Made by a program: the position numbers and the translations under genes. A DNA stretch of 64,000 nt. It comes from Candidatus Polarisedimenticolia bacterium. GTDB lineage: Bacteria > Acidobacteriota > Polarisedimenticolia > Gp22-AA2. The stretch lies in contig DASYQE010000381.1 in NCBI GenBank assembly GCA_036005805.1, positions 674 to 64,673 on the forward strand, given 5' to 3'. The notes below the pieces were generated by a model that was not told the DNA's origin, searched no databases, and saw only the letters and a list, made by a program, of their open reading frames with translations. Of this stretch, positions 4,943 through 22,145 are shown piece by piece. The stretch's first letter is position 1, and the number at the start of each line of letters is the position of its first letter.

Positions 4943-5017
4943 GCCTCTCCTCCTTCGAGCCCTGTTCCGGCGCCGTGTGCGAGGCGCATCTTACCCGCGC
5001 GCCATGCGGGGACGGCT

Positions 5018-5052
5018 AAAAAAAAGCCACCAGGCTCTTGGAGCCTGGTGGC
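5018..5052 (-). terminator. intrinsic terminator downstream of the 39-aa ORF
   Basis: Plus strand carries A8 (5018-5025) followed by GCCACCAGGCTC-ttg-GAGCCTGGTGGC. On the minus strand this is a 12-bp GC-rich hairpin followed by U8. Confidence 0.65.
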
Positions 5053-5087
5053 TGGGTGATGCGAATGCTGAGACGTTGCCGATCGAA

Positions 5088-5207
5088 CTAGCTGGTGATC
5101 GGGCCGCCACTCACACGGCACGAGTCATCCGCCTTGGAGCAGGCCGCGGCACGCGCCTCGATCTTCTCCGTGTGGATGATGGCCGGCTTCTCGTAGCTCT
5201 TCTTCAT
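5088..5207 (-). CDS. unannotated 39-aa peptide, candidate RiPP (ranthipeptide-like) precursor: MKKSYEKPAIIHTEKIEARAAACSKADDSCRVSGGPITS
   Basis: ATG (plus-strand CAT at 5205-5207) with an AGGAGGGAGAG SD 7 nt upstream. Codons are GC3-rich, the stop is TAG (5088-5090), and the terminator lies 36 nt downstream. Not in the track because it is under 60 aa. Confidence 0.6.
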   Translation of the reverse strand: MKKSYEKPAIIHTEKIEARAAACSKADDSCRVSGGPITS

Positions 5208-5237
5208 GGCGAAACTCTCCCTCCTGGAGGATGGTTT

Positions 5238-6455: not shown

Positions 6456-6503
6456 GGTTGGCTCTCCCTCCTCCTTTTGCTCGTCGTGAGAAATCGCTTG
6501 CGA

Positions 6504-7199: not shown

Positions 7200-7275
7200 G
7201 GCCTCCCTGTATCCCCTTGAGTTTTCGACCTACACCCACCCTAGAAGGCCGGCGAGGTTGTCGGCAACCTGCCGG

Positions 7276-7303
7276 TATGTACGCCCAAACTCCACTATGT
7301 CAA
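7276..7303 (-). promoter_or_regulatory. candidate sigma70-like promoter (TTGACA-N16-TACATA) for the 6504..7199 operon
   Basis: Minus strand reads TTGACA tagtggagtttgggcg TACATA, about 70 nt upstream of the start codon. The -10 element is imperfect. Confidence 0.3.
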
Positions 7304-7322
7304 GCACGAAAGAGCGGCGCTG

Positions 7323-7898
7323 CTACTCAACTCTGTAATAGGTGATGGCCGGGGATTCGGTGTCCCGGTCCACCCATTCATGCCCTTTGACGACCTGAGC
7401 GGCACCGGTTCCCAGGAGCCGCGGGTCGGTCGTCTTGAAGACTTTGTAGGTCCGGTTGTGCCCGTTGCTCCAGGCGACCCTGAGGCCGTCCTTCTCCAGG
7501 CGCATGTCCAGTTTCTCGGGCCCCTGGGCCTGCTGGGGCGCCACGTTGCCGTGGCTCAGGACGAAGGGGGCGGCGATCACCACCATGAGCAGCATGGCCG
7601 GGACGGCGGCGCTCCAGCCGTGCACGGGCAAAGGCGGCGCCAGGCGGCGCCACCAGGGAGCACGCACGGCCTCTTCGGCGGCCCGGGTGGAGATCCGCGT
7701 CACGACTCCGGGGGCCAACACGTCCCGCACCTCGAGCAGCGAGCGAACATCCGACAGAACATCTTTCATTTCAGCGAGTTCGGCGGCGCAGTCGGCACAT
7801 CCGGCCAGGTGGGACTCGACCGCCTCACGGCGGGAAAGCCCGAGGTCATCCGAGACGGCCAGCGGCAGGTCCTGTCGGAACCGGGTGCAGTCGCTCAT
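7323..7898 (-). CDS. zinc-finger (ZAS-type) anti-sigma factor, single TM
   Basis: N-terminal HLAGCADCAAEL (H-x3-C-x2-C) motif, a TM helix AVPAMLLMVVIAAPFVL, and a periplasmic C-terminal domain. Confidence 0.6.
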   Translation of the reverse strand: MSDCTRFRQDLPLAVSDDLGLSRREAVESHLAGCADCAAELAEMKDVLSDVRSLLEVRDVLAPGVVTRISTRAAEEAVRAPWWRRLAPPLPVHGWSAAVPAMLLMVVIAAPFVLSHGNVAPQQAQGPEKLDMRLEKDGLRVAWSNGHNRTYKVFKTTDPRLLGTGAAQVVKGHEWVDRDTESPAITYYRVE

Positions 7899-7975
7899 GG
7901 TCCCCTATACCCCCTGGCCGCGGGCGGCGTTCAAAGCGGGCCGGTGTCCCGGCCCGAAAAAAACCTCCCGGGGGC

Positions 7976-10531
7976 CTACTGGCAGCCCCCGGAGCTGGGG
8001 AAACCCGGCTTTCCGGAGGTTGAAAGCGAGTAGTTCCCGGCGACCCCGCCCGCGACCGACCGGATCAGGTAGAACCAGGCCTGCCCCACGGGAGGGGTGA
8101 CCGGGTCGGGGAAGTTGGCGGTGTCGGTGTCGGGGATGTCGTTGGCGATGCAGGTCACCGGACCCAGGTTCACCGTCGTCGGGGTCTGGGTGACGCTCCC
8201 CACGTTCCCGCGGATGACGTCATAGACGGCGCCCGGGACGATCCCCCAGCGCAGGTAGGTCGACTGGTGCCCGATGACGATGGCGCTCGCCAGCGGGTCG
8301 CCGAGAATCGACTGGTTGAGCAGGATGGTCACCGACTCGGTGTAATTGTCGGCCACGGCCAGGTCGGGCTTGCCGTCGGCGTTGAAGTCGCCGGCGGCCA
8401 CCGCCAGGGGCAGGTCGCGGGTCCCGAAGTCCCCCGCCTTGGTGAAGTTGCCGAACCCGTCCCCCAGCAGGAAGGAGACGTCGTTGCCGTTGGCGTTGAC
8501 CACGGCCGCGTCGAGCTTGCCGTCATTATTGAGGTCCGCCAGCGACACCGCATTCGGCGATTCCCCCGCCACGCTGTCGATCGACGGGAACGAGAAGACC
8601 CCGCCGCCGTCTCCCAGAAGAGCGCTGATGGTGCCCGAGGCGGAGTTGGCGACCACGAGATCCTGGTAGCCGTCGTTGTTCAGGTCGCCGCGCGCCATCT
8701 CGCGCGGACCGTTGCCGGTCGGGAAGGACGAGGGGATGTCGCCGAACCCGCCGAACCCGTCGGAGAAGCCGATGTCCACCCAGTTGTTGGTCTGCGAGGA
8801 GAAGGCGATGTCGGCCAGGCTGTCGAAGTTGTACTGGCCGACCGCCACCCCCTGCGGGTCGGCGTCCACGAGCGTGCAGAGGGTCGGCCCGAAGGCGCTG
8901 GCCCCCACGCCGCCCGTGCCGCGCTTGGTGCACACGTGGTAGGAGATCTCGCAGACGAAGGCCACGTCGGTCTTGCCATCGCCGTTGATGTCGCCCGCCG
9001 AGATCGCCACCGGGCTGCTGCAGGGTGAGGTCGAGATGCCGTTGCTGGCGTTGAGGGTCCCCGACCCGTTGTTCTGCAGAACCGACATCGTGTTGGTGCC
9101 GGTCACGACGACGAGATCGGGCCAGGTGTCGTTGTTGTCGTCGAGGGCGACCAGCGCCTCGGGGGCGCTCACGTTCCCGGTGCTGATGTTCACCGGCGCG
9201 AGGAAGGTGCCCCCGCCGTTGCCCCGGGCGGTGATCACCCGGTCGTTCGCCTCGTCCGTCGTGGCGATGTCGGGCTTGCCGTCCTTGTTGAAGTCGGCGA
9301 CCACGACCGACGTCGGGAACGAGCCGGAGCCGAGCGCGACCTTGTCGGCAATGATGAAGGCGCCGTTGGCGGTGGTCTCGAGGATCGACAGCGAGTTGCC
9401 GGTCAGGTTGCCGGTGACCACATCGAGGTTGCCGTCCTTGTTGAGGTCGGCGCTGGTCACGACCGTCGGCACCGGGCCGGTGGAGACCACGGTGGGCGCC
9501 GACCAGCTCGTGCCGCTGCCGTTGCCGGTCAAAACCGCCAGCTCGCCCGTGCCGGACACGTAGGACTGCGCGACCAGGAGGTCGGAGAAGCCGTCCTTGT
9601 TGATGTCGTCCACCCGGATCGCCCGCGGTCCGAACCCGCTCGAGAGGCTTAACGGAGTGTTGAAGCCGCCGCTGCCGTTGGCGATGTAGACCTTCACCGA
9701 GTCGGCGCCCCGCGCCGCCACGATGAGGTCGGGCTTGGTGTCGCCGTTCAGGTCGGCGGCGGTGGCGGACGCGGGCAGGCTGCCCGCGGCGAGAGTCAAG
9801 GTCAGGTTCAAGGCGAACCCTCCCGTTCCGTTCCCGCGCCAGATCTGCACGTTGTTCGAATCGGTGTTGACCACGGCCAGGTCGAGGATGTTGTCGGCGT
9901 TGAAGTCGGCCGTCAGGATGGCGTTCGGCGTCTGCCCGACGGTGAGGGTCGTCAGGTTGCCGAAGGTCCCCGTGCCGGTGCCGCGCAGGATCGAGACGGT
10001 GTCGTTGTTCGTGTTGGCGGTGGCGACGTCGAGGTGCGTGTCGTTGTTCCAGTCTCCGACCGCCAGGCCGAAAGGACCGGCGCCGACGGGTGAGCCGATC
10101 TTCGCGCCGAAGACGCCGTGGCCGTTGCCGAGATTGACCGTGACGTTCTGGGTCAGGAAGTTCGCGGCCACCACGTCGGGGAAGCCGTCGTGGTTGACGT
10201 CCACGAAGACAAGGGCCGTCGGCTTGGATCCTGCCACGAGGGTGCTGGTGCGCCGGAAGGTCCCGTCCCCGAATCCCTTCAACAGGCTGACGTAGTCCGA
10301 AAGCTCGTCCGCGCTCATCAAGTCCGTGACCCCGTCGCCGTCGAAATCGACCGCCAGGATCGACACGGGATGGTCTCCGACGTAGTAGTCGCGCCGGGAC
10401 TTCATGTCGTACTGGGCGAAGGCGAGCGGAGAAACGAGGACGGACAGGAGCACCGCGGCGATCGCGGTGACGCTCCCCTGCAAACGGCGGCGCGGAAACT
10501 GGCGGCGCGTTCCGGACTTCTCAGAGCACAT
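7976..10531 (-). CDS. secreted FG-GAP/VCBS-repeat (integrin-alpha-like beta-propeller) protein
   Basis: About 14 repeats of the D-x-N-x-D-G-x-x-D type (DFDGDGVTD, DVNHDGFPD, DLNGDTKPD, DINKDGFSD...). Start re-set to the ATG at 10529-10531 (MCSEKSG...) ahead of signal peptide VTAIAAVLLSVLVSPLAFA. Confidence 0.75.
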   Translation of the reverse strand: MCSEKSGTRRQFPRRRLQGSVTAIAAVLLSVLVSPLAFAQYDMKSRRDYYVGDHPVSILAVDFDGDGVTDLMSADELSDYVSLLKGFGDGTFRRTSTLVAGSKPTALVFVDVNHDGFPDVVAANFLTQNVTVNLGNGHGVFGAKIGSPVGAGPFGLAVGDWNNDTHLDVATANTNNDTVSILRGTGTGTFGNLTTLTVGQTPNAILTADFNADNILDLAVVNTDSNNVQIWRGNGTGGFALNLTLTLAAGSLPASATAADLNGDTKPDLIVAARGADSVKVYIANGSGGFNTPLSLSSGFGPRAIRVDDINKDGFSDLLVAQSYVSGTGELAVLTGNGSGTSWSAPTVVSTGPVPTVVTSADLNKDGNLDVVTGNLTGNSLSILETTANGAFIIADKVALGSGSFPTSVVVADFNKDGKPDIATTDEANDRVITARGNGGGTFLAPVNISTGNVSAPEALVALDDNNDTWPDLVVVTGTNTMSVLQNNGSGTLNASNGISTSPCSSPVAISAGDINGDGKTDVAFVCEISYHVCTKRGTGGVGASAFGPTLCTLVDADPQGVAVGQYNFDSLADIAFSSQTNNWVDIGFSDGFGGFGDIPSSFPTGNGPREMARGDLNNDGYQDLVVANSASGTISALLGDGGGVFSFPSIDSVAGESPNAVSLADLNNDGKLDAAVVNANGNDVSFLLGDGFGNFTKAGDFGTRDLPLAVAAGDFNADGKPDLAVADNYTESVTILLNQSILGDPLASAIVIGHQSTYLRWGIVPGAVYDVIRGNVGSVTQTPTTVNLGPVTCIANDIPDTDTANFPDPVTPPVGQAWFYLIRSVAGGVAGNYSLSTSGKPGFPSSGGCQ

Positions 10532-10699
10532 GCGGCGACGAGACGAGCGAACGAAAGTGCCGAGCCAGACGGAACGGAACTTCGACGACCACTGCAACAG
10601 CCACATCGACGGCCACTGCGTTTCAGAACCGAACCCCGGTTCCACCCGGCCGCGAGGCCGAATGGAACCGGGGTCGGAATCCGAAATCAACGACTCAGA

Positions 10700-12472
10700 C
10701 TAGCGGCTCACCGGGTACGACTCGACCGTCGACTGACGGACGAGCTCGATGAAGAAGCTCTGGCCGCTCTTGTGCTTCGGAACGATGAAGGAGTAGGACC
10801 CCGACCGACCGTCGCCGCAGGCCGTGCAGGCGATGACGGCGGCGTTCAGCTGGATCCGCTGGCCCTTCACGTAGCGCACGACGTTGAAGCCCACCACGTC
10901 CACCTCGGTCGTCGTCTGCCAGGTCACGAGACCCGAGCCCTTGCCGGCCGCGTTGTGGAAGTCGATGTGCGCATTCACGACCTGCTGCACGCAGGCGCCC
11001 GGGTCCTGGTCCGGGTTCGGGATGTTCGGGCAGACGTCGCAGACGTCCCCGAAGCCATCACCGTCCGCATCACCCTGGCCGGCGTTCGGAATGTTCGCGC
11101 AGTTGTCGCAGGCATTGCCGAGGAGGTCCCCGTCGCTGTCGGCCTGGTTGGTGTTCGCCGCGGCCGGGCAGTTGTCGCAGAGGTTGCCGACGCCGTCGCC
11201 GTCGCCATCCGCCTGGTTCGAGTTGGCGAGGGCGGGGCAGTTGTCGCAGGCGTCACCGAAGCCGTCGAGGTCGCTGTCCATGCCGCTGTCCGCAACATTC
11301 GGGCAGGGGTCGCAGGCATCGCCGAAGGCGTCGCCGTCGGAGTTGGCCTGGTTGGCGTTCGCGAGAATCGGGCAGTTGTCGCAGGCGTCGCCGCGACCGT
11401 CGCTGTCCGTGTCTTCCTGGCCGCCGTTGGCCGTGTTCGGGCAGTTGTCGCAGGCATCGCCGCGCGTGTCGCCGTCGGCGTTGGCCTGGTTGGCGTTCGA
11501 CACCGTCGGGCAGTTGTCCACCGGGTCCGCAATGCCGTCACCGTCCGTGTCCACCGTGCTGACGCTGGCGTGGGAGGAGACGTGACCGCTGGCCGCGCCA
11601 CCGACCTGAAGCCCGAGGGCCAGGTAGGTGCAGTTGGTGCCGGTCGTGTCGAACGGCACCGTCGCGCTGCCGGACAGGCCGCTGAAGCTGCCGATCGGCG
11701 AGCCCCACGAACCGGTGGCGCTGGTGGTCGGCTGGCTGGCGCACGGGCCGACGATGGAGTAGAGGTTGTAGCCCTGGATCAGGCCGGTGCGCGAACCGCC
11801 GCCACTGGGGAACGCCGGGCAGGTGCCGGCGGCGTTGAGGGCGCAGTCGTCGTACGCGACCGCCGCGTCCCAGGAGAGGGCCACGTTGGCCGTGCCGTTG
11901 CCGTTGTTGGTGATCGTGTTGACGTGCGGCGACGGGATGTTGCCCGCCCCGAGCGCGGAGCCGATGCCGTTGACGACATCGAGACCCGGCTGGGACAGGT
12001 CATACATGAACTGCTGCAGCTGGCTCGACCAACCCACCGCCTCGACGACGTAGCGGCCGGCGTGGGCCGACGTGCCCTCGCCCGAGCTCGACGTCACGAT
12101 GGTGACGAGGACGCTGGAGCCGTCCGGATCCGTGTTGGCCACCGGGCAGCCGGTCACGCCGACGTTGCCGAAGTTGCCGTTGATGGTCACCAGGCCGTCG
12201 TTGCCGCCGCCGGCCTCGGGCTGACAGAACTCGATGCCCGCGGTCGTCTGCGCGGTGCAGACGAACGCGCTCGACCCGTTGTTGATGGATGAGTCCCCGA
12301 GCTTGGACGCCCGGCCGGTCGCCGACGCCTCGGGCAGCCCGGTCAGGTAACCACCCAGCTGATGCCCAAAGGGGGTCGAATCCGGACACGACTGCGCCAT
12401 GACTGCCGGCGCCGCCGCGAAGGCGACCATCACCGCCGCCACGGCCACCATGGTTTTAAGGAACGTCTTCAT
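10700..12472 (-). CDS. secreted protein: Cys-rich N-domain + ~8 thrombospondin type-3 (Ca-binding) repeats + small C-terminal domain
   Basis: Signal peptide MKTFLKTMVAVAAVMVAFAAAPAVMAQ (start at 12470-12472). TSP3 repeats of the form D-x-D-x-D-G-x-x-D-x-x-D-N-C-P-x-x-x-N-x-x-Q. Confidence 0.75.
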   Translation of the reverse strand: MKTFLKTMVAVAAVMVAFAAAPAVMAQSCPDSTPFGHQLGGYLTGLPEASATGRASKLGDSSINNGSSAFVCTAQTTAGIEFCQPEAGGGNDGLVTINGNFGNVGVTGCPVANTDPDGSSVLVTIVTSSSGEGTSAHAGRYVVEAVGWSSQLQQFMYDLSQPGLDVVNGIGSALGAGNIPSPHVNTITNNGNGTANVALSWDAAVAYDDCALNAAGTCPAFPSGGGSRTGLIQGYNLYSIVGPCASQPTTSATGSWGSPIGSFSGLSGSATVPFDTTGTNCTYLALGLQVGGAASGHVSSHASVSTVDTDGDGIADPVDNCPTVSNANQANADGDTRGDACDNCPNTANGGQEDTDSDGRGDACDNCPILANANQANSDGDAFGDACDPCPNVADSGMDSDLDGFGDACDNCPALANSNQADGDGDGVGNLCDNCPAAANTNQADSDGDLLGNACDNCANIPNAGQGDADGDGFGDVCDVCPNIPNPDQDPGACVQQVVNAHIDFHNAAGKGSGLVTWQTTTEVDVVGFNVVRYVKGQRIQLNAAVIACTACGDGRSGSYSFIVPKHKSGQSFFIELVRQSTVESYPVSR

Positions 12473-12625
12473 CAGATTCCCCCCTCCTGAAGAGTGGTTG
12501 GTTCCCTCTGGATCTCTTGACTGCTGGACTCTCGGCCTGCTGACCCTGTGTTCGGCGATGTCGTGACCCTTGCGTTTCCGCCTATGGGGCCAGGACATAG
12601 ATCACAGCCCTGCGCGAATGACCTC

Positions 12626-12653
12626 TAGATACCCCGATTTAGGACATTGTCAA
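12626..12653 (-). promoter_or_regulatory. candidate promoter (TTGACA-N16-TATCTA) in the AT-richer gap upstream of the TSP3-repeat gene
   Basis: Minus strand reads TTGACA atgtcctaaatcgggg TATCTA. The local GC drop suggests a promoter; the -10 element is weak. Confidence 0.25.
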
Positions 12654-12708
12654 GAAAAAACACTCGGCTGAACTCTGGCGGATTCTATCGCGGTGATGAC
12701 GATTTCGT

Positions 12709-13347
12709 TCAACGTTTCCGGCTCAAAATCCGTTCCCGCAGCTTCTGGCGGGCCGACATGCAGTGCCGGCGCACGGTGATGGTGGAAAGCCGCAGGATGG
12801 CGCCGATCTCGTCCGTGGGCACTTCCTGCAGGTCCCTCAGGACAAAGACGATGCGTTCCTGGCGGGTCAGCCCGGCGAGGCACTCCTGCACCCGAGAGGC
12901 GAGCTGCCGCTCCTCGACCCGGGCCTGCACCGAGCCGCCGGCCGACCGGTCCAGCAACTGCGTCTGGATGGCCGGGTCGTCGATGGAAACCCCGGCGTGG
13001 CGCCGGTTTCGGCCCATCTGGTGGTACACGGAATGGATGGCGATGCGATAAAGCCATTTGAAGAAAATGCGTCCGGATTCGAACCGGGCGATGTGCTTGA
13101 ACACCCGGACGAAGGCGTCCTGGCAGGCGTCCATGGCGTCGTCCCGCGACAGCCCCATGTGGATGCCGAGGGCGATGATGCGGCTCTCGTAGGTGTGCAT
13201 CAGGTCCGCGAAGGCGTCCGGGTCCCCCGCCTTGGCGCGGTCGACCAGCCGGGTGATGGCCGGATCCTCGCTGCCCCCCTGGGGACCGGCCTCGTCAGCC
13301 ACCGGCGCGGCCAGGGCATCCAGTGCGAGGGTCTCGGGGGTGTCCAT
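12709..13347 (-). CDS. RNA polymerase sigma factor, ECF (sigma-70 group 4) family
   Basis: Region 2 (DPDAFADLMHTYESRI...DAFVRVF) and region 4 (LTRQERIVFVLRDLQEVPTDEIGAILRLSTITVRRH) signatures. Only 12 bp downstream of the peptidase gene. Confidence 0.8.
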   Translation of the reverse strand: MDTPETLALDALAAPVADEAGPQGGSEDPAITRLVDRAKAGDPDAFADLMHTYESRIIALGIHMGLSRDDAMDACQDAFVRVFKHIARFESGRIFFKWLYRIAIHSVYHQMGRNRRHAGVSIDDPAIQTQLLDRSAGGSVQARVEERQLASRVQECLAGLTRQERIVFVLRDLQEVPTDEIGAILRLSTITVRRHCMSARQKLRERILSRKR

Positions 13348-13358
13348 GTCGTCGCGCC

Positions 13359-16300
13359 TCAGAAGGGGCTGAGGTTGCCGCGGTTGTCCACCGCCAGCAC
13401 GCTGATGAACTTCGTTCCGGCGGGCAAAGACACCAGGTCCACCGAGGTGGCGGTGACGTTGTCCATGAAGAGGGTGGACGGTCCGAGCCCGGCGCGCGAC
13501 ACCGGCGCCGAGGTGACGTGCACCTGGTAATGATCGATGAGCGTGGGCAGTCCCTGCACGTCGGTCGTCACCGGCAGCCAGGAGAGGTGCACGGCCGAAG
13601 CCGGCATGGTCACGTCGAGGCTGCCGACGCCGTTCGGCAGGTCACGGCCGGCGCCCGAGACCAGGCCGTTGGAGTCCACGGCGGTCACCACGTAATAGGC
13701 GTTTCCCGCCAGGGTGTAGCCGCCGGTGTGCGTCCAGGTCGCCGGCGTGCCGCTGTTGATCACCGCGAAGGGGGCGGCGGGGTTGATGGTGAAGTTCGGG
13801 GTGGTGCCGCGGTAGACCCGGTACCCCACCACGTAGGTCGGACGGCCGTAGATGTCCACCGCGGGCCGGGTCCAGGTGAGGACGAGATCCGAGCCGGATC
13901 GATTGACCGTCAAATCGTCGATGGCCCGCGGCGGCGCGATCCCCTCGAACAGGTGCGGGACCTCGGACACCTCGGCGGTGCGGGCGCTCTCGATGTCGGA
14001 CGTGTTGGTGGCCGTGAGGCTCACGTAATAGCGCGTCCCGGTCTGCAGGCCGAAGAGCGAAAGCCCGGTGGCCGTCGCGGCCGCCGTGACGGTCGCGGTC
14101 GGCGCCCCGGCCGTGATGCCGTAGCGTACCGTATACCTCTTGATGTCGGTCTCGGGATTCTTGTTCCAGGAGACATCCAGCCGTCCCCCGGTGCCCGCGT
14201 CGCGCACCACCAGCCCGGTCGGAACACTCGGCGGGTTCGGGTTGATCGGCCGCGCCGTGACGCAGTCGGGTCCAGCGTCGCAGTCGCTGTTGAAGTTGGA
14301 GTTCGCGCCCTCGAACCCGTCGGCGTCCACCGACACCGCGAAGTAGTAATAGCGGCTGGCGTTGATGACCGTGGAGTCGATGCAGGAGTTCGCCCCGGCC
14401 GGCGTGCAGGCGATCGCCGTGGAGGCGGCGCCCGGCGTGCCGGTGGCGCGGTACAGGCGGGTGGAGGCGGCCGGCGTCCCCGGGGGCGTCCACGACAGGG
14501 TCACCTGGCCGTTCCCCGCCTGCGCCTGCAGCGCGGTCGGCGGCGCGGGAGCCGGCGTGGCGATGCGGCTCGCGGGGTCGCCGAGGAACGTGTACCCCTG
14601 CAAGTCCACGATCGAGCCCTGCTGCCAGAGGGCGGTCCGCATCGGCAGCGCCGCCTCGCCGAGCACCGTCTCGCGATCGGGTCCGAACAGCGACAGGAAC
14701 GTGTCGTCCGAGACCACCGAGCCGACGAAGGCGTTCGACAGGCCGCTGGGCGCGAGCGCGGCGATGGCGCCGCCGGCCGGGTTGTTCACCATCCCCTCCC
14801 CCAGCGAGCCGGTCCCGACCAGGTAGTGGAAGCCGCCGGAGAGGCAGTTGACGTTCACCATGAACGGCAGGCGCAGGCCGTTGGTCAGCGCCACGGCGTC
14901 GCTGGTCGTGAAGAAGGCGTCGAGCCCCCACTGCTCGAAGTTGCCGTGGCCGACGAAGGTGAGCACCGCCGCGCCCGACTGCAGCTCGGAGAGGAGCGTG
15001 GTCTTGAAGCCGGCGGCGTCGGCCGCGTTCCACGGCGGGTTGTCGAAGTAGAGCTGCGGCGACGGGTGACTGTACGGCGCCTGGCTGAAGAAGTCGGTGG
15101 TCAGGTCGTTGTTCACCGCCTCGAAGTCGTCCGACTCGCCGGTGAACTTCCCGTCGCCGGCGGTCAGGATGGCGCGCCCTTTCCACGTCCCGGACGGTGG
15201 CGTGGTCTCGAACTGGCGGATCTTGTCGAACACCGCGGCCGAGGCGGCGACGCTGCGCGTCGAGATGCGTCCCAGGTGCAGGTCGGGGATCTGGTCGGAC
15301 CCCGAGACGGAGGCCAGCCAGTTGTCGCTGCTGTAGTAGCCGATGATGCTCGCCGCCTGGAAGAGGATCGGCGTCGGCACCTGGTCGACCCAGTCGGCGC
15401 GCTGCATGACGTTCTTGAAGTCGGGGGTGGCGTCCCCGACCAGCAGCGCGAACGACGGCGGCGCCTCCAGCCCGGACGCCCCGCGCCAGTTCGCGAAGGC
15501 GTAGGCGAGGAAGCTCCGCACGGCGTTGGCGTCGCGGCGCCCGAAGGAGAACTCGTCGTACACCTGGTCGATGAAGACGACGCGGGAGTGGAGCCCCTGG
15601 GTCGCGAGCCTATGGCCCAGGAGCAGGTCGAGCGATCCTCCGGGGGCCGGATCGATCGTCTGCGTCGTGCCGATGACGATGAAGTCGGCCTGCTGTCCCG
15701 CGATCTTCAGCACCGGGTCCGCCGCCTGGGTCATCGCGTCCGGCAGGAGCGCGCCTGAGGGCCCGACGACGGCGAAGGTCCGGGTCGCGGGGGCCGAAGC
15801 GTCGAGCGCCGCCTCGAAGGTCCAGGCGGACGTCGGCGCGCCCGACGGCGTGGCGCCGGTCAGCGCGACGGCATCGGCTTCGCCGTTGCCCGCCACCGTC
15901 CTGCCGACCTCGAGGATGCGCGGCGCGGTGGCGCCGAGCCCGCCGACCTGGTAGCGGCCGTTCTGGTTCGGCACCGTGAAGAGGAGCACGTCGCCCGTCG
16001 CCGTGAAGGTGCGCCGGTACTTCACCTTGAACCAGTCGGGGTACTGGCGGTCCACGCTGATTCCCGCGTCGGTCACCGCCAGGGCGTGCACCGTGAGCGG
16101 GTTGCTCACCGACGCGCGCGGCACCGAGAAGGTGTGCTCGTTCATGGTCTCGTCGTCCCAGGTGTACTCCGAGGCGTTGACGGTGTCGGAGTTGAGCCAG
16201 ACGCGCGTCCGGTGGTCGGGGGCCGCCGCCAGGGACGAGCCGCCGCGCAGCCGCGCCGTCACCGTGACCGGCACGGCGGCCGGGGCCAGCCCGGGCAGCG

Positions 16301-17633
16301 CCAGCGACAGGTCGCGCTGCGCCTGGGCGCTTCCGGCGAGGAGCGACGGGATGGAGAAGTAGGGATCCTCCGCCCCGAGCGGAATGAAGATGTTGTTCTC
16401 CTCCCAGGTGGCGGTGTCCTCGAAATCGGCGGCCTGCGCGAAGCCGGAAACCGGGGCGCCGGAAGCGGACGGAATGCGCTTGTGGCCGCCCTGGTTGGTC
16501 CCGGTCGTCAGCCAGTACACCTGGGTGTCGGTGAAGTCGTTCGCCTCGTAGACCGACGGGTTGGCCAGACCCATGTCGAAGTTGAGCAGCGTCGGCGGCT
16601 CGGTTTTGGGCAGACCGAAGAACTCCAGGGTGTCGCCGGAGCCGAAGACCCCGTCCGCCTCTCCCGATCCGCCCGCGGCGTTCAGGATGGAGATCGGCAC
16701 CTCGACGCCGTCCACCTCGAGACCCCACGTGCGCGGGTCGGTCGCGAGCAGCGCGGCGGCGTTCGCATTGAGATAGGCGAGATCCAGGCGGTACAGCCCG
16801 CGCTTCGAAACCGCGATCTTGAAGCGCGGACCCGCCGGGGCGGCCGCCGTCGTCACGGCTTCGGTCGAGGCTGCAACCGTGCCGACCGGGGTCGAACCCA
16901 CCGCCTCGCGGTCCTCTTTCCGCGGTCCGCGCTGGCGCCGGAAGAAGCGTCCCTGCTCATAGTTGATGAAGGCGGATCGGTACCCGGCCTCGAAGTGCGG
17001 GTCGGCCGGCGGCGCGGCGCTCAGCCCCTGACCGGCCGGCAGGTCGAAGGTGACCACCGCTTCGATGTCGCCGTACAGGCGGCCCTCGCGCCGGACCGGG
17101 TCGTACAGCAGCGGCGTCCAGATCACCTCCACGAACGCCTGGTCGCGCAGCGCTCCGACCCGGCCGAGGTGCAGGGGCGCGTCCGGCTGGAAGGCGTCGG
17201 CGCCGTACACCGGCGCGGAGCGCGCGAAGTCCTGGACGACCTGGCCCCGCGCGCGACGATCGCCGCCCGGCGGCGTCTGCCCGTCGCCCGGGTCGAACCC
17301 TTCGCGGTCGGACAGGCGCGGCGTCGGCACCGGTGGCACGTCGAGATCGGTCAGGGTGCGCGAGTCGGCACGCAGGATCGCCAGGGACGGGACGGCCCCC
17401 TCGGGGATCGCCACCAGGACGATGCGCACCGGCAGGGCCGGCTCGCCCGGCCGGCTGGTGGTGCCGAAGCCGTCGAGCGCCGGCACCAAGCCGCCCTCGA
17501 CGGCGCGGAAGCGCAGCTCGGGCGTGCCGAGGCTCAACGGAACCGACTGGCTTCCGGGCGCACCGTGCCCGGGGACGACGAGGCAGAGCAGGAGTCCGAC
17601 GAAAACGAGCGGACGGAGAATCGGGGAGTTCAT
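13359..17633 (-). CDS. giant secreted peptidase C25 (gingipain-like, clan CD) with multiple C-terminal Fn3-like domains
   Basis: Signal peptide present. His-Gly / Cys dyad context FVGHGNFEQWG ... (36 aa) ... VNVNCLSGGFH matches the gingipain/caspase-fold catalytic arrangement. Fn3-like repeats follow (VTLSWTPP..., LDVSWNKN..., LVLTWTRP...). Confidence 0.65.
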   Translation of the reverse strand: MNSPILRPLVFVGLLLCLVVPGHGAPGSQSVPLSLGTPELRFRAVEGGLVPALDGFGTTSRPGEPALPVRIVLVAIPEGAVPSLAILRADSRTLTDLDVPPVPTPRLSDREGFDPGDGQTPPGGDRRARGQVVQDFARSAPVYGADAFQPDAPLHLGRVGALRDQAFVEVIWTPLLYDPVRREGRLYGDIEAVVTFDLPAGQGLSAAPPADPHFEAGYRSAFINYEQGRFFRRQRGPRKEDREAVGSTPVGTVAASTEAVTTAAAPAGPRFKIAVSKRGLYRLDLAYLNANAAALLATDPRTWGLEVDGVEVPISILNAAGGSGEADGVFGSGDTLEFFGLPKTEPPTLLNFDMGLANPSVYEANDFTDTQVYWLTTGTNQGGHKRIPSASGAPVSGFAQAADFEDTATWEENNIFIPLGAEDPYFSIPSLLAGSAQAQRDLSLALPGLAPAAVPVTVTARLRGGSSLAAAPDHRTRVWLNSDTVNASEYTWDDETMNEHTFSVPRASVSNPLTVHALAVTDAGISVDRQYPDWFKVKYRRTFTATGDVLLFTVPNQNGRYQVGGLGATAPRILEVGRTVAGNGEADAVALTGATPSGAPTSAWTFEAALDASAPATRTFAVVGPSGALLPDAMTQAADPVLKIAGQQADFIVIGTTQTIDPAPGGSLDLLLGHRLATQGLHSRVVFIDQVYDEFSFGRRDANAVRSFLAYAFANWRGASGLEAPPSFALLVGDATPDFKNVMQRADWVDQVPTPILFQAASIIGYYSSDNWLASVSGSDQIPDLHLGRISTRSVAASAAVFDKIRQFETTPPSGTWKGRAILTAGDGKFTGESDDFEAVNNDLTTDFFSQAPYSHPSPQLYFDNPPWNAADAAGFKTTLLSELQSGAAVLTFVGHGNFEQWGLDAFFTTSDAVALTNGLRLPFMVNVNCLSGGFHYLVGTGSLGEGMVNNPAGGAIAALAPSGLSNAFVGSVVSDDTFLSLFGPDRETVLGEAALPMRTALWQQGSIVDLQGYTFLGDPASRIATPAPAPPTALQAQAGNGQVTLSWTPPGTPAASTRLYRATGTPGAASTAIACTPAGANSCIDSTVINASRYYYFAVSVDADGFEGANSNFNSDCDAGPDCVTARPINPNPPSVPTGLVVRDAGTGGRLDVSWNKNPETDIKRYTVRYGITAGAPTATVTAAATATGLSLFGLQTGTRYYVSLTATNTSDIESARTAEVSEVPHLFEGIAPPRAIDDLTVNRSGSDLVLTWTRPAVDIYGRPTYVVGYRVYRGTTPNFTINPAAPFAVINSGTPATWTHTGGYTLAGNAYYVVTAVDSNGLVSGAGRDLPNGVGSLDVTMPASAVHLSWLPVTTDVQGLPTLIDHYQVHVTSAPVSRAGLGPSTLFMDNVTATSVDLVSLPAGTKFISVLAVDNRGNLSPF

Positions 17634-17704
17634 GGGGACCCGGACTTCAACCGGAGATCAGCACCTTCTTTCCCTTGCGCACGACACGAGCGGCTCTGCG
17701 CCGC

Positions 17705-18802
17705 TCACATTCCGCACTTGGTGAGGACCCCCCCGGTCTCCTCCGCGGAATGTCCGGTCTTCTCTTTCCAGGTGGCGTAGGCCTTGGCGCGGAACTCGGC
17801 GTTCTTGGCGATCTGCGGGTAGATCGCCTTCGGGTCGCCGAGCTGCACGTCGGCGACGCCCATGCAGAAGCCGCACTGGTCGCCGTTCTTCGCCACCTTC
17901 AGGGTCTGCTGCGCCACTTCGACCGCCTCGCGCCGCACCTGGATCAACACCGGCGAGGTGCGCCACATGTCGCGCAGGTTCGCGAGCTCGCGGATGTTCC
18001 CCGCCTTGCGCCGCAGCTGCACGCACGGATAGATGTTGCCGTACGGGTCGATGGCGAGGCCCGAGCGGCCGGTGCCGCAGACCGCCTCCCCCGGCGCATC
18101 GACGCGCGGCAGCGGGATCTCCTCCTTGCGGGCGGTCCGGTAGGCGTCGTCGGACCAGAATTTCTCCAGGAAGTCGTCGCTCGACATCAGCGAAACGGGA
18201 TCCTTGTCGCCGTCGTCGCGCGGCGTGATGACCGTGTCGAACTGGATGCGCGCGCCGAGCTCGCTCGCGAGGCGCTCCATGTCGAGCACCTCCCACTGGT
18301 TGTCCTTGGTCACCGGGCACTTGAGATTGACCTTGATGCCCTCGGCGCGAAGGTAGCCGACGCCCGCGAGCAGCTTCTTCAGCGAGCCGGGGACGCAGGT
18401 GAGCTTGTCGTGGGTCTCCGGCTTCGCCCCGTGGATGCTGATCTCCATCTCCAGCGGGTTGGCGATCTGTTTGATCTTCTTCGCCATCGGCTCGTCGATG
18501 AGGAAGCCGTTGGTGTAGATGCGCAGCGCGAACCCGAGCCGGCGCGCCTCGGCGGCGATCTCGAAGAAGTCCTTGCGGACGAGCGGCTCCCCTCCCGTGA
18601 GCGTCAGGTAGAGGACGTTGAAGTCGGCGAGCTTGCGCAGCGCGTCGAACACCTCGGCGGTGTTCATCTCCTTCTGGCCGGTCGGGCAGTTGTAGCAGAA
18701 GGAGCAGGCGTGGTTGCAGACGAAGGTCAGCTCGAACAGCGCCGACATCGGCACGGCGTTGTTCCAGTTCTTGATGGTCAGTTTTTCGAGCGCGTTCGGC
18801 AT
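17705..18802 (-). CDS. radical SAM / SPASM-domain enzyme (peptide-modifying maturase class)
   Basis: CNHACSFC (CxxxCxxC) cluster with a downstream GGEPL motif. C-terminal SPASM cysteines: CGTGRSGLAIDPYGNIYPC ... CGFCMG. Confidence 0.85.
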   Translation of the reverse strand: MPNALEKLTIKNWNNAVPMSALFELTFVCNHACSFCYNCPTGQKEMNTAEVFDALRKLADFNVLYLTLTGGEPLVRKDFFEIAAEARRLGFALRIYTNGFLIDEPMAKKIKQIANPLEMEISIHGAKPETHDKLTCVPGSLKKLLAGVGYLRAEGIKVNLKCPVTKDNQWEVLDMERLASELGARIQFDTVITPRDDGDKDPVSLMSSDDFLEKFWSDDAYRTARKEEIPLPRVDAPGEAVCGTGRSGLAIDPYGNIYPCVQLRRKAGNIRELANLRDMWRTSPVLIQVRREAVEVAQQTLKVAKNGDQCGFCMGVADVQLGDPKAIYPQIAKNAEFRAKAYATWKEKTGHSAEETGGVLTKCGM

Positions 18803-18803
18803 G

Positions 18804-19070
18804 TCAGCTCACCATTCCTTGCGTCTTCAGATCGGTGACGAAGGCCTGCAGATCCCCGAGCGCCTTCTCGCGCGTGATGTCGTACTCCGCCAGGATGCCG
18901 TCGAGAATCTCCGCCAGGGTGCGCCGCCCGTCGATCCGCTCCCAGATCGCGCTGCCGATCTCGTTCAGCACGCTCACCTGGGCGCGCGAAGGCAGGACGA
19001 TGGTCGCCTGCCCGTCGTAGGTGCGGTGGGCGGCGTCGGGGCTCTTGGTGAGAACGGTGGTCAGGTCCAT
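18804..19070 (-). CDS. PqqD-family peptide chaperone (stand-alone RiPP recognition element)
   Basis: 88 aa. Family pattern VLNEIGSAIWERIDGRRTLAEILDGILAEYDI...ALGDLQAFVTDLKTQGMV. Reading frames are tightly coupled to the flanking genes. Confidence 0.75.
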   Translation of the reverse strand: MDLTTVLTKSPDAAHRTYDGQATIVLPSRAQVSVLNEIGSAIWERIDGRRTLAEILDGILAEYDITREKALGDLQAFVTDLKTQGMVS

Positions 19071-19073
19071 GCG

Positions 19074-19991
19074 TCAGCGCTCCTCGATCACATCCCAGAA
19101 GGCGTCGTCCTTGCGGAAGTGCAACCTCCACAGCGGGGTCGTCGCGACCAGCCGCGCGGCGTTCTCGACCGCCGGTCGCGGATCCACGTCGCCGTCGAGC
19201 ACGAACGGCAGCGAGGCCACCACTTCTGCCAGAGCCGCCGCCCCGGCCACTCGTTCACGCCGGACATCGGACGACTGCACCAGCCGGTGCAGCCCGGCGA
19301 TCGGAAAGGCCTCGTTGCTGTCCGGCACGTGGTGGTGCGCCATCCCGAACGGGATGCCCGCCGCCTGAAAACCTCGAGGTGCGGGGACCAGCAAGGTCAG
19401 GTCGTCGCTCAGCACCAGGTCGCGCTGCGAGAACCGGGTCACGGTGGTCTTGCCGCTGCCGGATGGGCCGAAGAAGACGTAGGCCCGGCCGCCGCGCACC
19501 ACCGCCGCGCCGTGCAGCAGCATCCCGCCGCGTGCCTGGATGAACCCGGCCGTCATCGCCCGCAGGAAGTTCTCCGAGCCGCGCTCGAACCGGGGTCCTT
19601 CCTCCTCGACCAGCGCCAGCTCGGCGGTGCGTCGATCGGTGGCGAAGGACCCGGCGAACTCGTACGACCACCAGCGCCGGGCGTCGGCGTCACGCCGGGT
19701 CGGCATCCGATAGACCTCCGTGCCGGCGTCCTGGAGCTGCAGGAACGACTCCCGGCCGGCGCGCGTGAGGCGCACGGAAAGGTCGGCCGGCCCGGTGGCC
19801 TTTTCCTCGAGGAACGGCCGGTACTGGCTGAGGAGGCGATCCCGCTGCCTGGACGAGAGCCCCTCGAGGGCGAAGCGCAGGGGCCCGACGCGCAGGGCGA
19901 GCGTCCCCTGCCCGAACGCGGGGCGGTTTTCGGCGAACCAGGCCGCATCCGGGTTGAAATCAGTCCCGGGGGGACGGTCCTGTCCGCTCAT
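19074..19991 (-). CDS. HprK-related kinase (HPr kinase C-terminal-domain P-loop family); start uncertain (track uses TTG at 20096)
   Basis: Walker A FFGPSGSGKTT, then LSDDLTLL, in an HprK C-terminal-like fold. ATG at 19989-19991 is preferred because the candidate promoter at 20067-20096 would lie inside the longer ORF. Confidence 0.65.
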   Translation of the reverse strand: MSGQDRPPGTDFNPDAAWFAENRPAFGQGTLALRVGPLRFALEGLSSRQRDRLLSQYRPFLEEKATGPADLSVRLTRAGRESFLQLQDAGTEVYRMPTRRDADARRWWSYEFAGSFATDRRTAELALVEEEGPRFERGSENFLRAMTAGFIQARGGMLLHGAAVVRGGRAYVFFGPSGSGKTTVTRFSQRDLVLSDDLTLLVPAPRGFQAAGIPFGMAHHHVPDSNEAFPIAGLHRLVQSSDVRRERVAGAAALAEVVASLPFVLDGDVDPRPAVENAARLVATTPLWRLHFRKDDAFWDVIEER

Positions 19992-20066
19992 CCTGTCGGC
20001 GACGGCGCCTTGGGACACGTGTGTGAGCAAGGTTCGGGTAGCCCTCGGCTGCTTTGAAACGGCCGA

Positions 20067-20096
20067 AATATACCGTGTTTCGGGGGGTTCGTCCAA
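20067..20096 (-). promoter_or_regulatory. candidate sigma70 promoter TTGGAC-N17-TATATT for the kinase-PqqD-rSAM operon
   Basis: Minus strand reads TTGGAC gaacccccgaaacacgg TATATT, in the 60-bp gap after the sulfatase-like gene stop. Confidence 0.3.
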
Positions 20097-20153
20097 ACGA
20101 AATTTGGTTACAAGTTGGGGATTACGCGACGGTTAGGCCATGTCCAGCAAGGA

Positions 20154-22145
20154 TTATTTCGATCCGGAGGCCGGAGGGGCCGGCTTCGCGGCCGGATCCG
20201 GCTGGGAGGTCGAGGCGGGCGGAAGCGGGTCCAGCCCGATCAGGGTGCGGAAGCGCGGGTCGTTCTTGAGGGGCGCCAGGCGGGAGTCGCGGCGCATCTC
20301 CGTGAAGTCGTTCGCCCCCAGGGTGATGGCCTTCTCGAGGGAGGCGATCGCCTCATCGACCTTCCCCTGGCGGGCGAAGATGGTCGCCCGGTCGAAATCG
20401 GGGTCCTCGCTCTGCGGATCCACGAGCTGCATCACGTCCATGGCCTTGAGGGCCCGGGCTGTCTCCCCCTTCGCCTCCCAGTAGTGCGCCAGCCAGTGGT
20501 ACCCATTCATCCGGTAGGGATAGCGGCACTGCTGGAGCTCGAGGTTGTCGAGAAGCGCATCCCCCCAGCGGTTGCGGATGCCGAGGAAGCTCACCATGTC
20601 GAGGGCGCTGAAATTGTCGGGATCCGTCTCCATGACGGCCGAGGCGTTGCGCGTCGAGCGCCCGACGATCCCGTAGGACTGGTCGATGGTCGCGGTGAAC
20701 ATCGTGCCGTTGACCGCCACCTTCTCCGGCAGGCGGGGATCGGGCCAGGTGTCCTTCGCCACGCAGAACGGGGCGTCGGCCCAGGGCGTTCCGAGCGCCG
20801 CCGCCGCGGCATCGATCTCCTTCTTCCTGGCCGGCGGCGGCTCCAGCTCGCCGAGCCGGCCCTGGCCCTGCGCCTGAAGCGCCCTGGTCCACTTCGCCCC
20901 GGGGTCCTTGATCGGGTGCTCCTCGGCGGGGTCGGCGGCGAGGTCGAACGACTCCGTCCAGGTTCCGCGGACCACCTTGTGGTCACCGTCGATCACCGCC
21001 CAGAGCGGGCTCCAGCCATAAGCCATCCACGGCTGGACCGATTCGATCCAGATCGGCCGACCCTCGCGCGGCGGCTTCGGCCTGCCCTTCCCGGCCGGTG
21101 CGGTCAGCAGGCCGGCGAAGGAGACACCGTCGAGCGCCGTCGTCGCCGAGCCCGCCTTCGCGGCGCCCGCCAGGTCGAGAAGCGTCGGCGCGAGGTCGGT
21201 CAGGCTGACCGGCGTCGCCACGACCGCTCCTCCTGCCATCGCGTTGGGCAGTCCGAATGGGACGATGACCAGGGGCACCCGCACCGTGGTCTCGTAGAGG
21301 TAGATGCCGTGACCGGTCTCCTGGTGTTGTCCCAGGGCTTCCCCGTGCGATCCGGCCACCACGAGCACCGACCGATCGAGGAGCTGCTTGTCGCGCAGCA
21401 GGTCGACGAGGGCGCCGAGCTGCGGATCGAGCGAGGCCAGCTCGCCGTCGTACGGGTCGTCCTTGTGCTCGGACTTGAACGGCTCCGGCGCTTCGTAATC
21501 GGCGTGCGGGTCGTGGAAATTCGCGAACAGGAAGAGGGGCTTCGCCGCGGTCCGCTTGTCGAGCCGCGCGCGGACGGCCTCGGTCACTTCCGAGGCGCGC
21601 CGCTCCTTCGACAGGCCGGCGACCAGCTTCCGGATCCCCGGGAATTCGTCGTCATAGACATCGAAGCCGCGGTCAAGCCGGGTGTCGGAGTCGAGGAAGT
21701 GGCTGCCGATCACCGCCAGCGTTTCGTAGCCGGCCTGGCGCAGGCGCTCGGCCAGAGGGACCACCCCGTCCGCCAGGCGCCCCCCGGCGCCCTCGAGGTC
21801 GTGGCGCACCCCGTGATGCGAAGGGTCCAGTCCCGTGAGCACGCTGGCGTTGCTGGGCGCCGTCGACGGCGACGCGGCGTAGGCGTGGTCGAACCGGATT
21901 CCCTGCTTCGCCAGCGCCTCGAGCTTCGGCAGGTCGTGCTGGCCGCCCTCCGGCTGGAAGAGCCGGTCGCTCCGCAGGCTGTCGATGGTGATCAGGATGA
22001 TGTTCGGCCGGGCCGGGGCGGCGGGCGCACCCGCAGCCGCAGCGGCACGGACGCCGACGATCGACAGGAGCGCGATGCAGATGGGAGCGACGGCGGTGCG
22101 CCATCCCGGGCGCCCAGGATGCGGGCGCCCGAACGACCCGATCAT
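20154..22145 (-). CDS. secreted sulfatase-like hydrolase/transferase (alkaline phosphatase superfamily) with C-terminal TPR repeats
   Basis: Signal peptide present. N-terminal IILITIDSLRSDRL...ASVLTGLDPSHHG block, then HFLDSD, HDPHADY, GSHGEALG metal-site-like motifs, then C-terminal TPR. Confidence 0.7.
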   Translation of the reverse strand: MIGSFGRPHPGRPGWRTAVAPICIALLSIVGVRAAAAAGAPAAPARPNIILITIDSLRSDRLFQPEGGQHDLPKLEALAKQGIRFDHAYAASPSTAPSNASVLTGLDPSHHGVRHDLEGAGGRLADGVVPLAERLRQAGYETLAVIGSHFLDSDTRLDRGFDVYDDEFPGIRKLVAGLSKERRASEVTEAVRARLDKRTAAKPLFLFANFHDPHADYEAPEPFKSEHKDDPYDGELASLDPQLGALVDLLRDKQLLDRSVLVVAGSHGEALGQHQETGHGIYLYETTVRVPLVIVPFGLPNAMAGGAVVATPVSLTDLAPTLLDLAGAAKAGSATTALDGVSFAGLLTAPAGKGRPKPPREGRPIWIESVQPWMAYGWSPLWAVIDGDHKVVRGTWTESFDLAADPAEEHPIKDPGAKWTRALQAQGQGRLGELEPPPARKKEIDAAAAALGTPWADAPFCVAKDTWPDPRLPEKVAVNGTMFTATIDQSYGIVGRSTRNASAVMETDPDNFSALDMVSFLGIRNRWGDALLDNLELQQCRYPYRMNGYHWLAHYWEAKGETARALKAMDVMQLVDPQSEDPDFDRATIFARQGKVDEAIASLEKAITLGANDFTEMRRDSRLAPLKNDPRFRTLIGLDPLPPASTSQPDPAAKPAPPASGSK

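Follow-up and report, generated by a model that had tools for sequence, protein, structure and literature searches.

A ScmC-family kinase-like protein, a PqqD-type recognition element and a radical SAM enzyme as the probable modification set of a two-cysteine peptide family

Homologs of the HPr kinase (HprK) have been described in two settings of peptides that are made by ribosomes and then modified post-translationally (RiPPs). In paeninodin-type lasso peptide pathways, HPr-kinase homologs phosphorylate the C-terminal Ser of precursors that share little beyond this residue, and in the case of pseudomycoidin, a nucleotidyltransferase next glycosylates the phosphate (PMC8498205). In the linear polyphosphorylated peptides (LPP) of Bacillota (Nat Commun 2026), the gene set includes a kinase, a RiPP recognition element (RRE), a signal peptidase I and a nucleoside triphosphate (NTP) transferase; the RRE presents a leader of the form YxxPxVLxHQxIxFETxxS to the peptidase, and the kinase LppK polyphosphorylates Ser3 of the core, a modification that the S3T and S3Y variants of LppA escape (PMC13381572). 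Here, we describe a related gene set in a 64,000-nucleotide stretch of DNA from a Candidatus Polarisedimenticolia bacterium (Acidobacteriota; contig DASYQE010000381.1), hereafter the window, where three adjoining genes encode a kinase-like protein of the ScmC family, a stand-alone PqqD-family RRE and a radical S-adenosylmethionine (SAM) enzyme. Judging from the sequences, we consider it likely that this trio supplies the cytoplasmic modification enzymes of a RiPP pathway and that its substrate is a peptide of 39 amino acids (aa) encoded at 5088-5207, a member of an undescribed but widespread family of modified peptides. The features on which the argument turns are as follows:

19074-19991, minus strand: ScmC-family P-loop kinase-like gene, 305 aa from the ATG at 19991 (other starts: TTG at 20030, TTG at 20096)
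18804-19070, minus strand: stand-alone PqqD-family RRE, 88 aa
17705-18802, minus strand: radical SAM enzyme with a degenerate (5-Cys) SPASM/twitch-like C-terminal domain, 365 aa
5088-5207, minus strand: precursor peptide, 39 aa, MKKSYEKPAIIHTEKIEARAAACSKADDSCRVSGGPITS; match to the family hidden Markov model (HMM) at E = 4e-14; ATG start; GGAGGGAG ribosome-binding site
5025-5053, minus strand: intrinsic terminator hairpin (13-bp stem followed by T7), directly 3' of the precursor gene
20067-20095, minus strand: promoter-like site TGGACG-17-TATATT, 5' of the kinase-like gene, a match to the consensus alone

The original prediction had described three tightly packed, co-directional genes with spacings of 1-3 nt, and this layout stands: the kinase-like, PqqD and radical SAM open reading frames (ORFs; 19074-20096, 18804-19070 and 17705-18802) all lie on the minus strand, with gaps of 3 nt and then 1 nt. 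Each of the three proteins has hundreds of conserved homologs, so these are genuine genes and no chance ORFs. As predicted, the first protein contains the P-loop FFGPSGSGKTT, which is invariant among its homologs, and the 88-aa protein belongs to the PqqD family (Pfam PF05402, 3.6e-17). For the third protein, the prediction held in part: the radical SAM assignment with its CxxxCxxC motif was borne out (PF04055, 9.4e-22), but the full array of SPASM cysteines was not, the C-terminal domain having 5 Cys. The kinase-like gene probably starts at the ATG at 19991 or else at the TTG at 20030, the start used by a 318-aa database protein with 95% identity; the TTG at 20096 appears to be over-extended, because the promoter-like site falls inside the extension and because conservation among homologs begins at about residue 12, counted from the ATG at 19991. 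This promoter-like site, the single sigma-70-type match in the 15.6 kb from 4800 to 20400 of the window, sits in an AT-richer spacer past the upstream gene.

When species-representative genomes were scanned with the ScmC alignment, 79 loci were obtained, and 3 more that were reached through close homologs bring the total to 82; the denominators given here count only those loci with enough flanking sequence. The loci are found in Acidobacteriota (Polarisedimenticolia, Blastocatellia, Thermoanaerobaculia and Aminicenantes), in Chloroflexota (Anaerolineae, Ardenticatenia and Caldilineae), and further in Zixibacteria, KSB1, Competibacteraceae, Cryosericum and one archaeon. We observed a PqqD gene after ScmC in 68/76 loci, a radical SAM gene alongside it in 59/71, a C25 peptidase gene at a distance of ≤9 kb in 45/63, across phyla, and a linked precursor gene in 39/63. 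Because of this co-conservation, we treat ScmC, PqqD and the radical SAM enzyme as one unit. Separation of the three genes in other genomes had been set beforehand as the outcome that would speak against the prediction; the trio was found to be kept together, and the proposed RiPP-type maturation set, i.e., a discrete RRE with a radical SAM enzyme, was likewise upheld. Two of the loci, L004 and L022, whose ScmC-like proteins are 95% and 54% identical to that of the window, carry the labels "Verrucomicrobiia" and "Patescibacteria group"; these are probably binning or labelling errors, since all other close relatives belong to Polarisedimenticolia/Acidobacteriota.

When all ORFs of the loci were clustered, 34 loci proved to have a small ORF located between their radical SAM and C25 genes. 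A profile built from these intergenic ORFs, which come from other phyla, had one match in the window, at 5088-5207 on the minus strand (E = 4e-14), and the 39-aa peptide that had been put forward as a candidate substrate is indeed a member of this trio-linked precursor family. The window peptide had no match in Pfam or NCBIfam, and the 1,074 proteins retrieved by the profile are all unnamed and free of Pfam domains. On 22 public contigs, the gene calls include this peptide with 100% identity and in the same context. In the reciprocal, precursor-anchored scan, for which a narrower precursor alignment was used in metagenomes, a radical SAM gene lay directly upstream wherever the contig allowed it to be seen; window-type peptides detached from the radical SAM gene were found as well.

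The precursors share a fixed framework around a variable core. Counted over 191 distinct peptides, exactly two Cys are present in 187, and the C-terminal residue is Ser in 185 and Thr in 2. The Tyr and Pro of the YxxP motif in the leader, invariant in an alignment of 25 sequences, occur in 191/191 peptides; the leader consensus reads YEKPAV[IV]HR..[ML]E..A..C, where the family motif YxxPx[VIL] takes the form Y5-E-K-P8-A-I10-I in the window peptide. In the two-Cys precursors, the first Cys (Cys1) stands 18 residues after the Tyr (185/187), an Ala occupies the third position before it (187/187), a Lys lies between the two Cys (182/187) within a loop of 6-16 residues, and the second Cys (Cys2) is 5, 7 or 9 residues away from the C terminus, while the inter-Cys loops show free variation, both in their sequence and in their length. 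Tandem double or triple precursor genes are common (L042, L055, L062, L065, L089, L103, L116 and others), often with identical leaders, and with cores that are either identical or slightly different. Directly past the precursor terminator, the window encodes a 1085-aa protein (1685-4942, minus strand) with a spermidine-synthase-like domain and C-terminal TPR repeats, a neighbour that recurs on other contigs with the exact window peptide.

How does this gene set compare with the described systems? As in LPP, an HprK-like kinase is accompanied by a discrete PqqD-type RRE, relatives carry a SipW-like signal peptidase I (32 loci) and some an NTP transferase, and the precursors have a YxxPxV[LI] leader, with a small conserved residue following the Tyr at a distance of 15 positions (the index of LPP Thr-1) and a key core residue following it at a distance of 18 (the index of LPP Ser3). 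Unlike LPP, the set includes secreted PorU-like C25 peptidases (one or two) and a radical SAM/SPASM enzyme, its short core has two Cys and an invariant C-terminal Ser, its hosts are Acidobacteriota and Chloroflexota and not Bacillota, and the window clade is without signal peptidase I and NTP transferase; the MsbA-type exporter of the conserved LPP gene set was not seen among the conserved neighbours, no search having been aimed at it. The lasso tailoring systems of paeninodin and pseudomycoidin likewise combine an HprK-like kinase, a lasso-type RRE, a C-terminal Ser and an optional nucleotidyltransferase, whereas no lasso cyclase or B2 peptidase was found among the conserved neighbours here, with a radical SAM enzyme in their stead. 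Paeninodin-type kinases (PMC8498205) and LppK (PMC13381572) contradict the earlier statement that HprK-related kinases take part in no characterized RiPP pathway. Because the leader opens with YxxPxV[IL], with a small residue at the Thr-1 index and a Cys at the Ser3 index, we assign the wider family, on sequence grounds, to an LPP/lasso-type kinase-RRE(-signal peptidase) module with an added radical SAM enzyme and C25 peptidases.

Two catalogued gene sets come close as well. In NCBIfam scans, all matches of the trio proteins lie far under the curated cutoffs: the best match of the kinase-like protein is ScmC (TIGR04249; 27.3 bits, E = 2e-6, cutoff 125), that of the PqqD protein is ScmD (TIGR04248; 43.9 bits, 2e-11, cutoff 100), and the radical SAM enzyme scores 100.9 bits against ScmE and 62.9 bits against ScmF (cutoffs 400 each). 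The locus thus has the same three protein types as the SynChlorMet cassette (TIGR04248-TIGR04251; ScmC, ScmD, ScmE and ScmF), but with scores far under the cutoffs (27 versus 125, 44 versus 100 and 101 versus 400 bits) and with one radical SAM gene versus two in the cassette; a second radical SAM gene was not found in the window, and relatives such as L083 have two. Catalogued for more than a decade, the SynChlorMet cassette is to our knowledge functionally uncharacterised, with no identified precursor. The kinase-like protein is assigned to Pfam PF27840 (ScmC) through its homologs: this family is precomputed on all of the best 120 (50-95% identity, full length, unnamed), several of which come from Candidatus Polarisedimenticolia (Acidobacteriota), and the gene tables label the family "ScmC." In a search with the ScmC-family profile, 11,608 cluster representatives matched at E ≤ 1e-3, of which 569 reached E ≤ 1e-30.

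The label "HPr-rel-A-like" that the locus had been given was dropped, as the NCBIfam matches to ScmC, ScmD and ScmE are better, though sub-threshold, and the homologs carry PF27840. The HPr-rel-A system (TIGR04352 HprK_rel_A, PqqD_rel_X and a nucleotidyltransferase) also places a P-loop HprK-related protein beside a PqqD-family protein, whereas the radical SAM enzyme is extra here; membership was rejected, with HprK_rel_A at 19.7 bits (E = 3.7e-4) against a cutoff of 200, PqqD_rel_X not among the matches, and the nucleotidyltransferase absent. That no obvious nucleotidyltransferase is present had been noted correctly: phmmer with the NTP_transf_5 protein of a related locus found none in the six-frame translation of the window. 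Such a gene occurs in 10/82 loci, in several directly 5' of ScmC, and also in L083 and L135. In the literature that we searched, nothing relevant was found on SynChlorMet, ScmC, PF27840 or TIGR04249, no paper describes a kinase-RRE module with a radical SAM enzyme and C25 or an HprK with a SPASM enzyme, and the RRE-Finder papers do not mention a kinase or C25.

For the window, we propose a pathway of five steps. The PqqD-family RRE, which has the lasso B1 RREs TbiB1 and TfuB1 among its nearest solved structures, would bind the YEKPAI leader (Y5, P8, I10), in the way that lasso and LPP RREs bind YxxP, and present the core. The ScmC-like kinase would O-phosphorylate Ser39, which we favor because it is the only invariant hydroxyl and corresponds to the site of paeninodin-type kinases; where a nucleotidyltransferase is present, it would extend the phosphate. 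The radical SAM enzyme would modify Cys23 and/or Cys30, most likely by forming thioether crosslinks, as suggested by its likeness to SkfB, StsB and CteB and by the two invariant Cys. The leader would be cut near Ala20, in relatives probably by the signal-peptidase-I-like enzyme. Least certain is the final step, in which the secreted C25 peptidase would process or use the exported peptide.

Several observations weigh against this pathway. In the window clade, the precursor gene is unlinked from the trio: it lies ~12.5 kb downstream, past the C25 gene, an extracytoplasmic function (ECF) sigma factor, a TSP3-repeat protein, an FG-GAP protein, an anti-sigma factor and two secreted proteins. Secretion sets the C25 peptidase apart from the other enzymes, which are cytoplasmic, and an exporter was not found among the conserved neighbours. 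A signal-peptidase-I-like gene was not detected in the 64-kb window, where the best profile match (E = 0.003) is an unrelated ORF. The modelled fold of the kinase-like protein is not nearer to HprK than to PEPCK, and its structure model is poor around the P-loop (predicted local distance difference test score <50 at residues 178-186). The residue 18 positions after the Tyr, which is the kinase target position in LPP, is a Cys (185/187) and not a Ser, so the kinase-like protein might do something else. The radical SAM enzyme has Leu301 and Ala304 where the SPASM block CX2CX5CX2C starts with two Cys. Lastly, where the peptide would be phosphorylated, which reaction the radical SAM enzyme would catalyse and where the leader would be cut are all points that we infer.

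Of the alternatives to the proposed pathway, the one that survives best concerns the C25 peptidase and its surroundings, for which these features are needed:

13359-17633, minus strand: secreted PorU-like C25 cysteine peptidase, 1424 aa (Peptidase_C25 5e-59, Propeptide_C25, fn3)
12709-13347, minus strand: ECF sigma factor directly after the C25 gene, a lineage-specific companion (Sigma70_r2/r4)
10742-10948, minus strand: C-terminal ~70-aa domain of the TSP3-repeat protein (domain HMM from 23 Chloroflexota proteins, E = 2.7e-7)
5253-5483, minus strand: the same ~70-aa domain, a weak match (E = 5.7e-3), in a 405-aa secreted Cys-rich protein 5' of the precursor gene

The C25 gene starts 71 nt past the radical SAM gene; this conserved neighbour and the signal peptidase I of relatives had both been overlooked in the original prediction. 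PorU, the type IX secretion sortase of family C25, is the best model match of the locus C25 proteins (1.1e-83 for a second copy in L134), and the window protein resembles it in being secreted and in having a His/Cys dyad but remains under the cutoff of the PorU model NF033707 (184.9 bits, 1.7e-54, cutoff 420). The dyad, His896/Cys930, is kept in at least 93% of 43 homologs, all of which open with a signal-like N-terminal segment. These properties bring up the possibility that the modified and phosphorylated peptide, exported once its leader has been cut off, is an acceptor or anchor for sortase-like transpeptidation by the PorU-like C25 enzyme, with attachment via the new N terminus or the invariant Lys, and with the C-terminal domain of the TSP3-repeat and 405-aa proteins marking the donors. 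Consistent with such a role, the C25 gene adjoins the precursor in L084 though the modifying enzymes are elsewhere, the Lys is invariant in a loop of otherwise varying length, and the ~70-aa domain, which derives from small membrane proteins flanking the system in ~30 Chloroflexota loci (an association only), recurs on exactly two proteins of the window, both in the same gene block. The argument is one of gene association throughout, however: what the proteins share may simply be a fibronectin-like fold of a generic kind, with one of its two window matches weak, the PorU scores stay under cutoffs, and there is no known exporter or acceptor chemistry. We therefore regard surface attachment as unlikely. 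In the literature searched, no report links a C25 peptidase to a RiPP gene set.

The 405-aa protein (5238-6455, minus strand) is a paralog of the TSP3-repeat protein (10700-12598, minus strand), with 32% identity over ~270 N-terminal residues and the C-terminal domain, and in the metagenome locus L121, a homolog of it is joined to the precursor in one reading frame with no stop between. The original prediction had also offered the Cys-rich secreted proteins as candidate substrates; of this we saw no sign, though two of them carry the system-linked Chloroflexota C-terminal domain. No matches were obtained with phmmer when the 405-aa, 231-aa, anti-sigma, FG-GAP and TSP3 proteins were compared with distant loci; a link for two of them emerged only with the domain-level profile. 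An ECF sigma factor follows C25 in the Acidobacteriota loci L001-L004, L006, L008, L010, L013, L017, L021, L022, L031 and L032 as well as L050, L071, L072 and L099; it was not found in the Chloroflexota loci.

An archaeal-type (SipW-like) signal peptidase I was identified from gene tables and profile searches in the 32 related loci mentioned above, located after C25 in Chloroflexota and directly 5' of ScmC in the distant Polarisedimenticolia loci L017, L019 and L021. One of these proteins passes TIGR02228 (54.9 versus 51.85 bits), and Ser36, His74 and Asp93 are kept in at least 90% of them. Because this gene was found in relatives, C25 as the sole leader peptidase was downgraded. The Chloroflexota cluster (L134, L136 and others, ~30 loci) opens with a small membrane protein bearing a WxTxxExDxxGFNxYR domain, followed by ScmC, PqqD and the radical SAM/SPASM enzyme; it continues with one or two precursors, a C25 peptidase and a signal-peptidase-I-like protein and ends with a 340-380-aa membrane protein (the same domain plus a Pro/Thr-rich region) and a second C25 with the stronger PorU match (1.1e-83). 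A variant order, i.e., radical SAM/SPASM, precursor, signal-peptidase-I-like, NTP_transf_5, ScmC and PqqD, is seen in L083 (a 2.9-Mb contig), L135 and the Blastocatellia locus L039, where C25 is encoded on the opposite strand; L083 further contains two DUF1843 small proteins and one more radical SAM/SPASM gene.

A second alternative concerns the role of the ScmC-like protein, for which structure modelling predicts a PEPCK/HprK-like fold, and with whose profile a sequence search of the PDB returned P-loop/PEPCK fragments only, HprK not being among the matches. Rather than being a Ser kinase, this protein could work at Cys1 as an ATP-dependent activator or scaffold, e.g., through transient phosphorylation or adenylation before crosslinking; conservation of the C-terminal Ser would then have a different cause, such as recognition by a peptidase or in export. 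The position of Cys1 at that of the Ser3 phosphorylated by LppK, 18 residues after the Tyr, together with an Ala at the LPP Thr-1 position, would fit this role, but the 16-17-residue spacing from YxxP to the core is general for these RREs. Likewise, the likeness of the modelled fold to PEPCK more than to HprK and the few fixed spacing classes between Cys2 and the C terminus are in its favor, while the HprK homologs characterised so far in RiPP pathways act on Ser specifically (LppA with S3T or S3Y is not phosphorylated) and the only invariant hydroxyl, the C-terminal Ser/Thr (187/191), is the paeninodin-type kinase site. We consider a non-kinase role rather improbable and retain phosphorylation of Ser39 as the proposed reaction.

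The radical SAM enzyme bears on a third alternative. Its motif C29-x3-C33-x2-C36 is invariant in 60/60 relatives, and its Pfam SPASM match is marginal (24.9 bits, cutoff 21.5). The SPASM subfamily is defined by CX3CX2C together with a seven-Cys motif, CX9-15GX4C...CX2CX5CX3C...C; the window enzyme has the former and lacks the latter, with C242, C260, C310, C313 and C363 as the only Cys in its C-terminal domain. The loss of Cys at 301/304 is shared by most Acidobacteriota members, and the Chloroflexota relatives retain all seven. The Cys pattern of the window clade suggests that an auxiliary cluster has been rewired or that one has been lost. In the closest Polarisedimenticolia clade, extra Cys are present at 39, 136, 162 and 363, co-occurring in about 16-19/60 sequences. 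Among solved structures, the thioether synthase SkfB comes closest (4e-14), with a cytosylglucuronate decarboxylase, PqqE and CteB next; the NCBIfam matches, which cover the generic core, are AhbD, mycofactocin maturase (4e-33), NirJ, StsB (1.9e-29), PqqE, AlbA and ScmE. With the maturases of sacti- and ranthipeptides (SkfB, CteB, AlbA and StsB), the locus has in common a radical SAM enzyme of the auxiliary-cluster type, an RRE and a Cys-containing core, but the RRE is separate here, the core has two Cys, the auxiliary domain has five, no family cutoff is reached, and the Cys crosslinks are proposed from sequence likeness.

The presence of mycofactocin maturase and PqqE among the best NCBIfam matches raises the third alternative, in which the peptide would be a cofactor or signal precursor like pyrroloquinoline quinone or mycofactocin, with the radical SAM enzyme acting near the conserved termini and peptidases freeing a small fragment. 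These matches, however, span the generic radical SAM core only and lie far under cutoffs. The framework residues are invariant across phyla, the window peptide is fully identical on its 22 contigs, and the invariant C-terminal residue is reminiscent of MftA; yet the inter-Cys loops vary freely, as RiPP cores do, tandem precursors with differing cores are common, and no partner oxidoreductase or other cofactor genes were seen among the conserved neighbours. A cofactor precursor is in our view very unlikely.

The gene upstream of the trio (20154-22145, minus strand) encodes a "sulfatase" plus TPR protein with a Thr at the formylglycine position (S-T-A-P-S-N), probably a Thr-nucleophile member of the alkaline-phosphatase superfamily, judging by this motif, and not a true sulfatase. 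Anaerobic sulfatase maturases are SPASM enzymes. Although this gene adjoins the trio on the same strand and matches Pfam Sulfatase at 2.2e-37, we ruled out, as next to inconceivable, that the radical SAM enzyme is its maturase, given the T-A-P-S-N motif (S-T-A-P-S-N versus C/S-x-P-x-R, with the same Thr and no Arg in 6/9 close relatives) and a linkage that is not conserved (it is confined to the closest Polarisedimenticolia loci, a promoter-like site separates the sulfatase gene from the kinase-like gene, and the radical SAM gene instead co-travels with PqqD and the small peptide).

Elsewhere in the window, a second ScmC-family paralog (32097-33038, minus strand), full length and 32% identical to the first, overlaps by 4 nt with the gene of a 406-aa protein (33035-34255, minus strand). 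The C-terminal half of the latter is a class-I SAM methyltransferase, with a daptide-type RiPP methyltransferase as its best NCBIfam match (2.6e-10, under cutoff). Its N terminus has a very weak signal-peptidase-I-like match (E = 0.003), with SA in place of the catalytic SM, and this identity was set aside as too weak to call. No PqqD gene was found near this second paralog. Together, paralog and methyltransferase may constitute a second, different peptide-modification module.

The trio and its peptide provide a probable substrate for a gene set of the ScmC family that is kin to the SynChlorMet cassette. The phosphopeptide logic of kinase, RRE and signal peptidase would then reach beyond Bacillota into poorly cultured phyla of soil and sediment, and the kinase-RRE module would be one that can be combined with radical SAM chemistry. 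With the 39-aa peptide and three enzymes, the window offers a compact, testable set for heterologous expression. The boldest version of this picture, which we give a small chance of being correct, is that of a new RiPP class whose precursor clusters number more than 1,000, most of them in Chloroflexota and Acidobacteriota, and in which an LPP/lasso-type RRE-kinase module is joined to a crosslinking radical SAM enzyme, while the phosphorylated, crosslinked two-Cys product is functionally coupled to secreted PorU-like C25 transpeptidases and possibly acts as an acceptor or anchor for surface proteins that bear a dedicated C-terminal domain; if true, it would represent a peptide-based protein-sorting or attachment system outside Bacteroidota. 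More generally, the link to secreted PorU-like peptidases, which recurs across phyla, could mean that modified peptides serve a new function at the cell surface.

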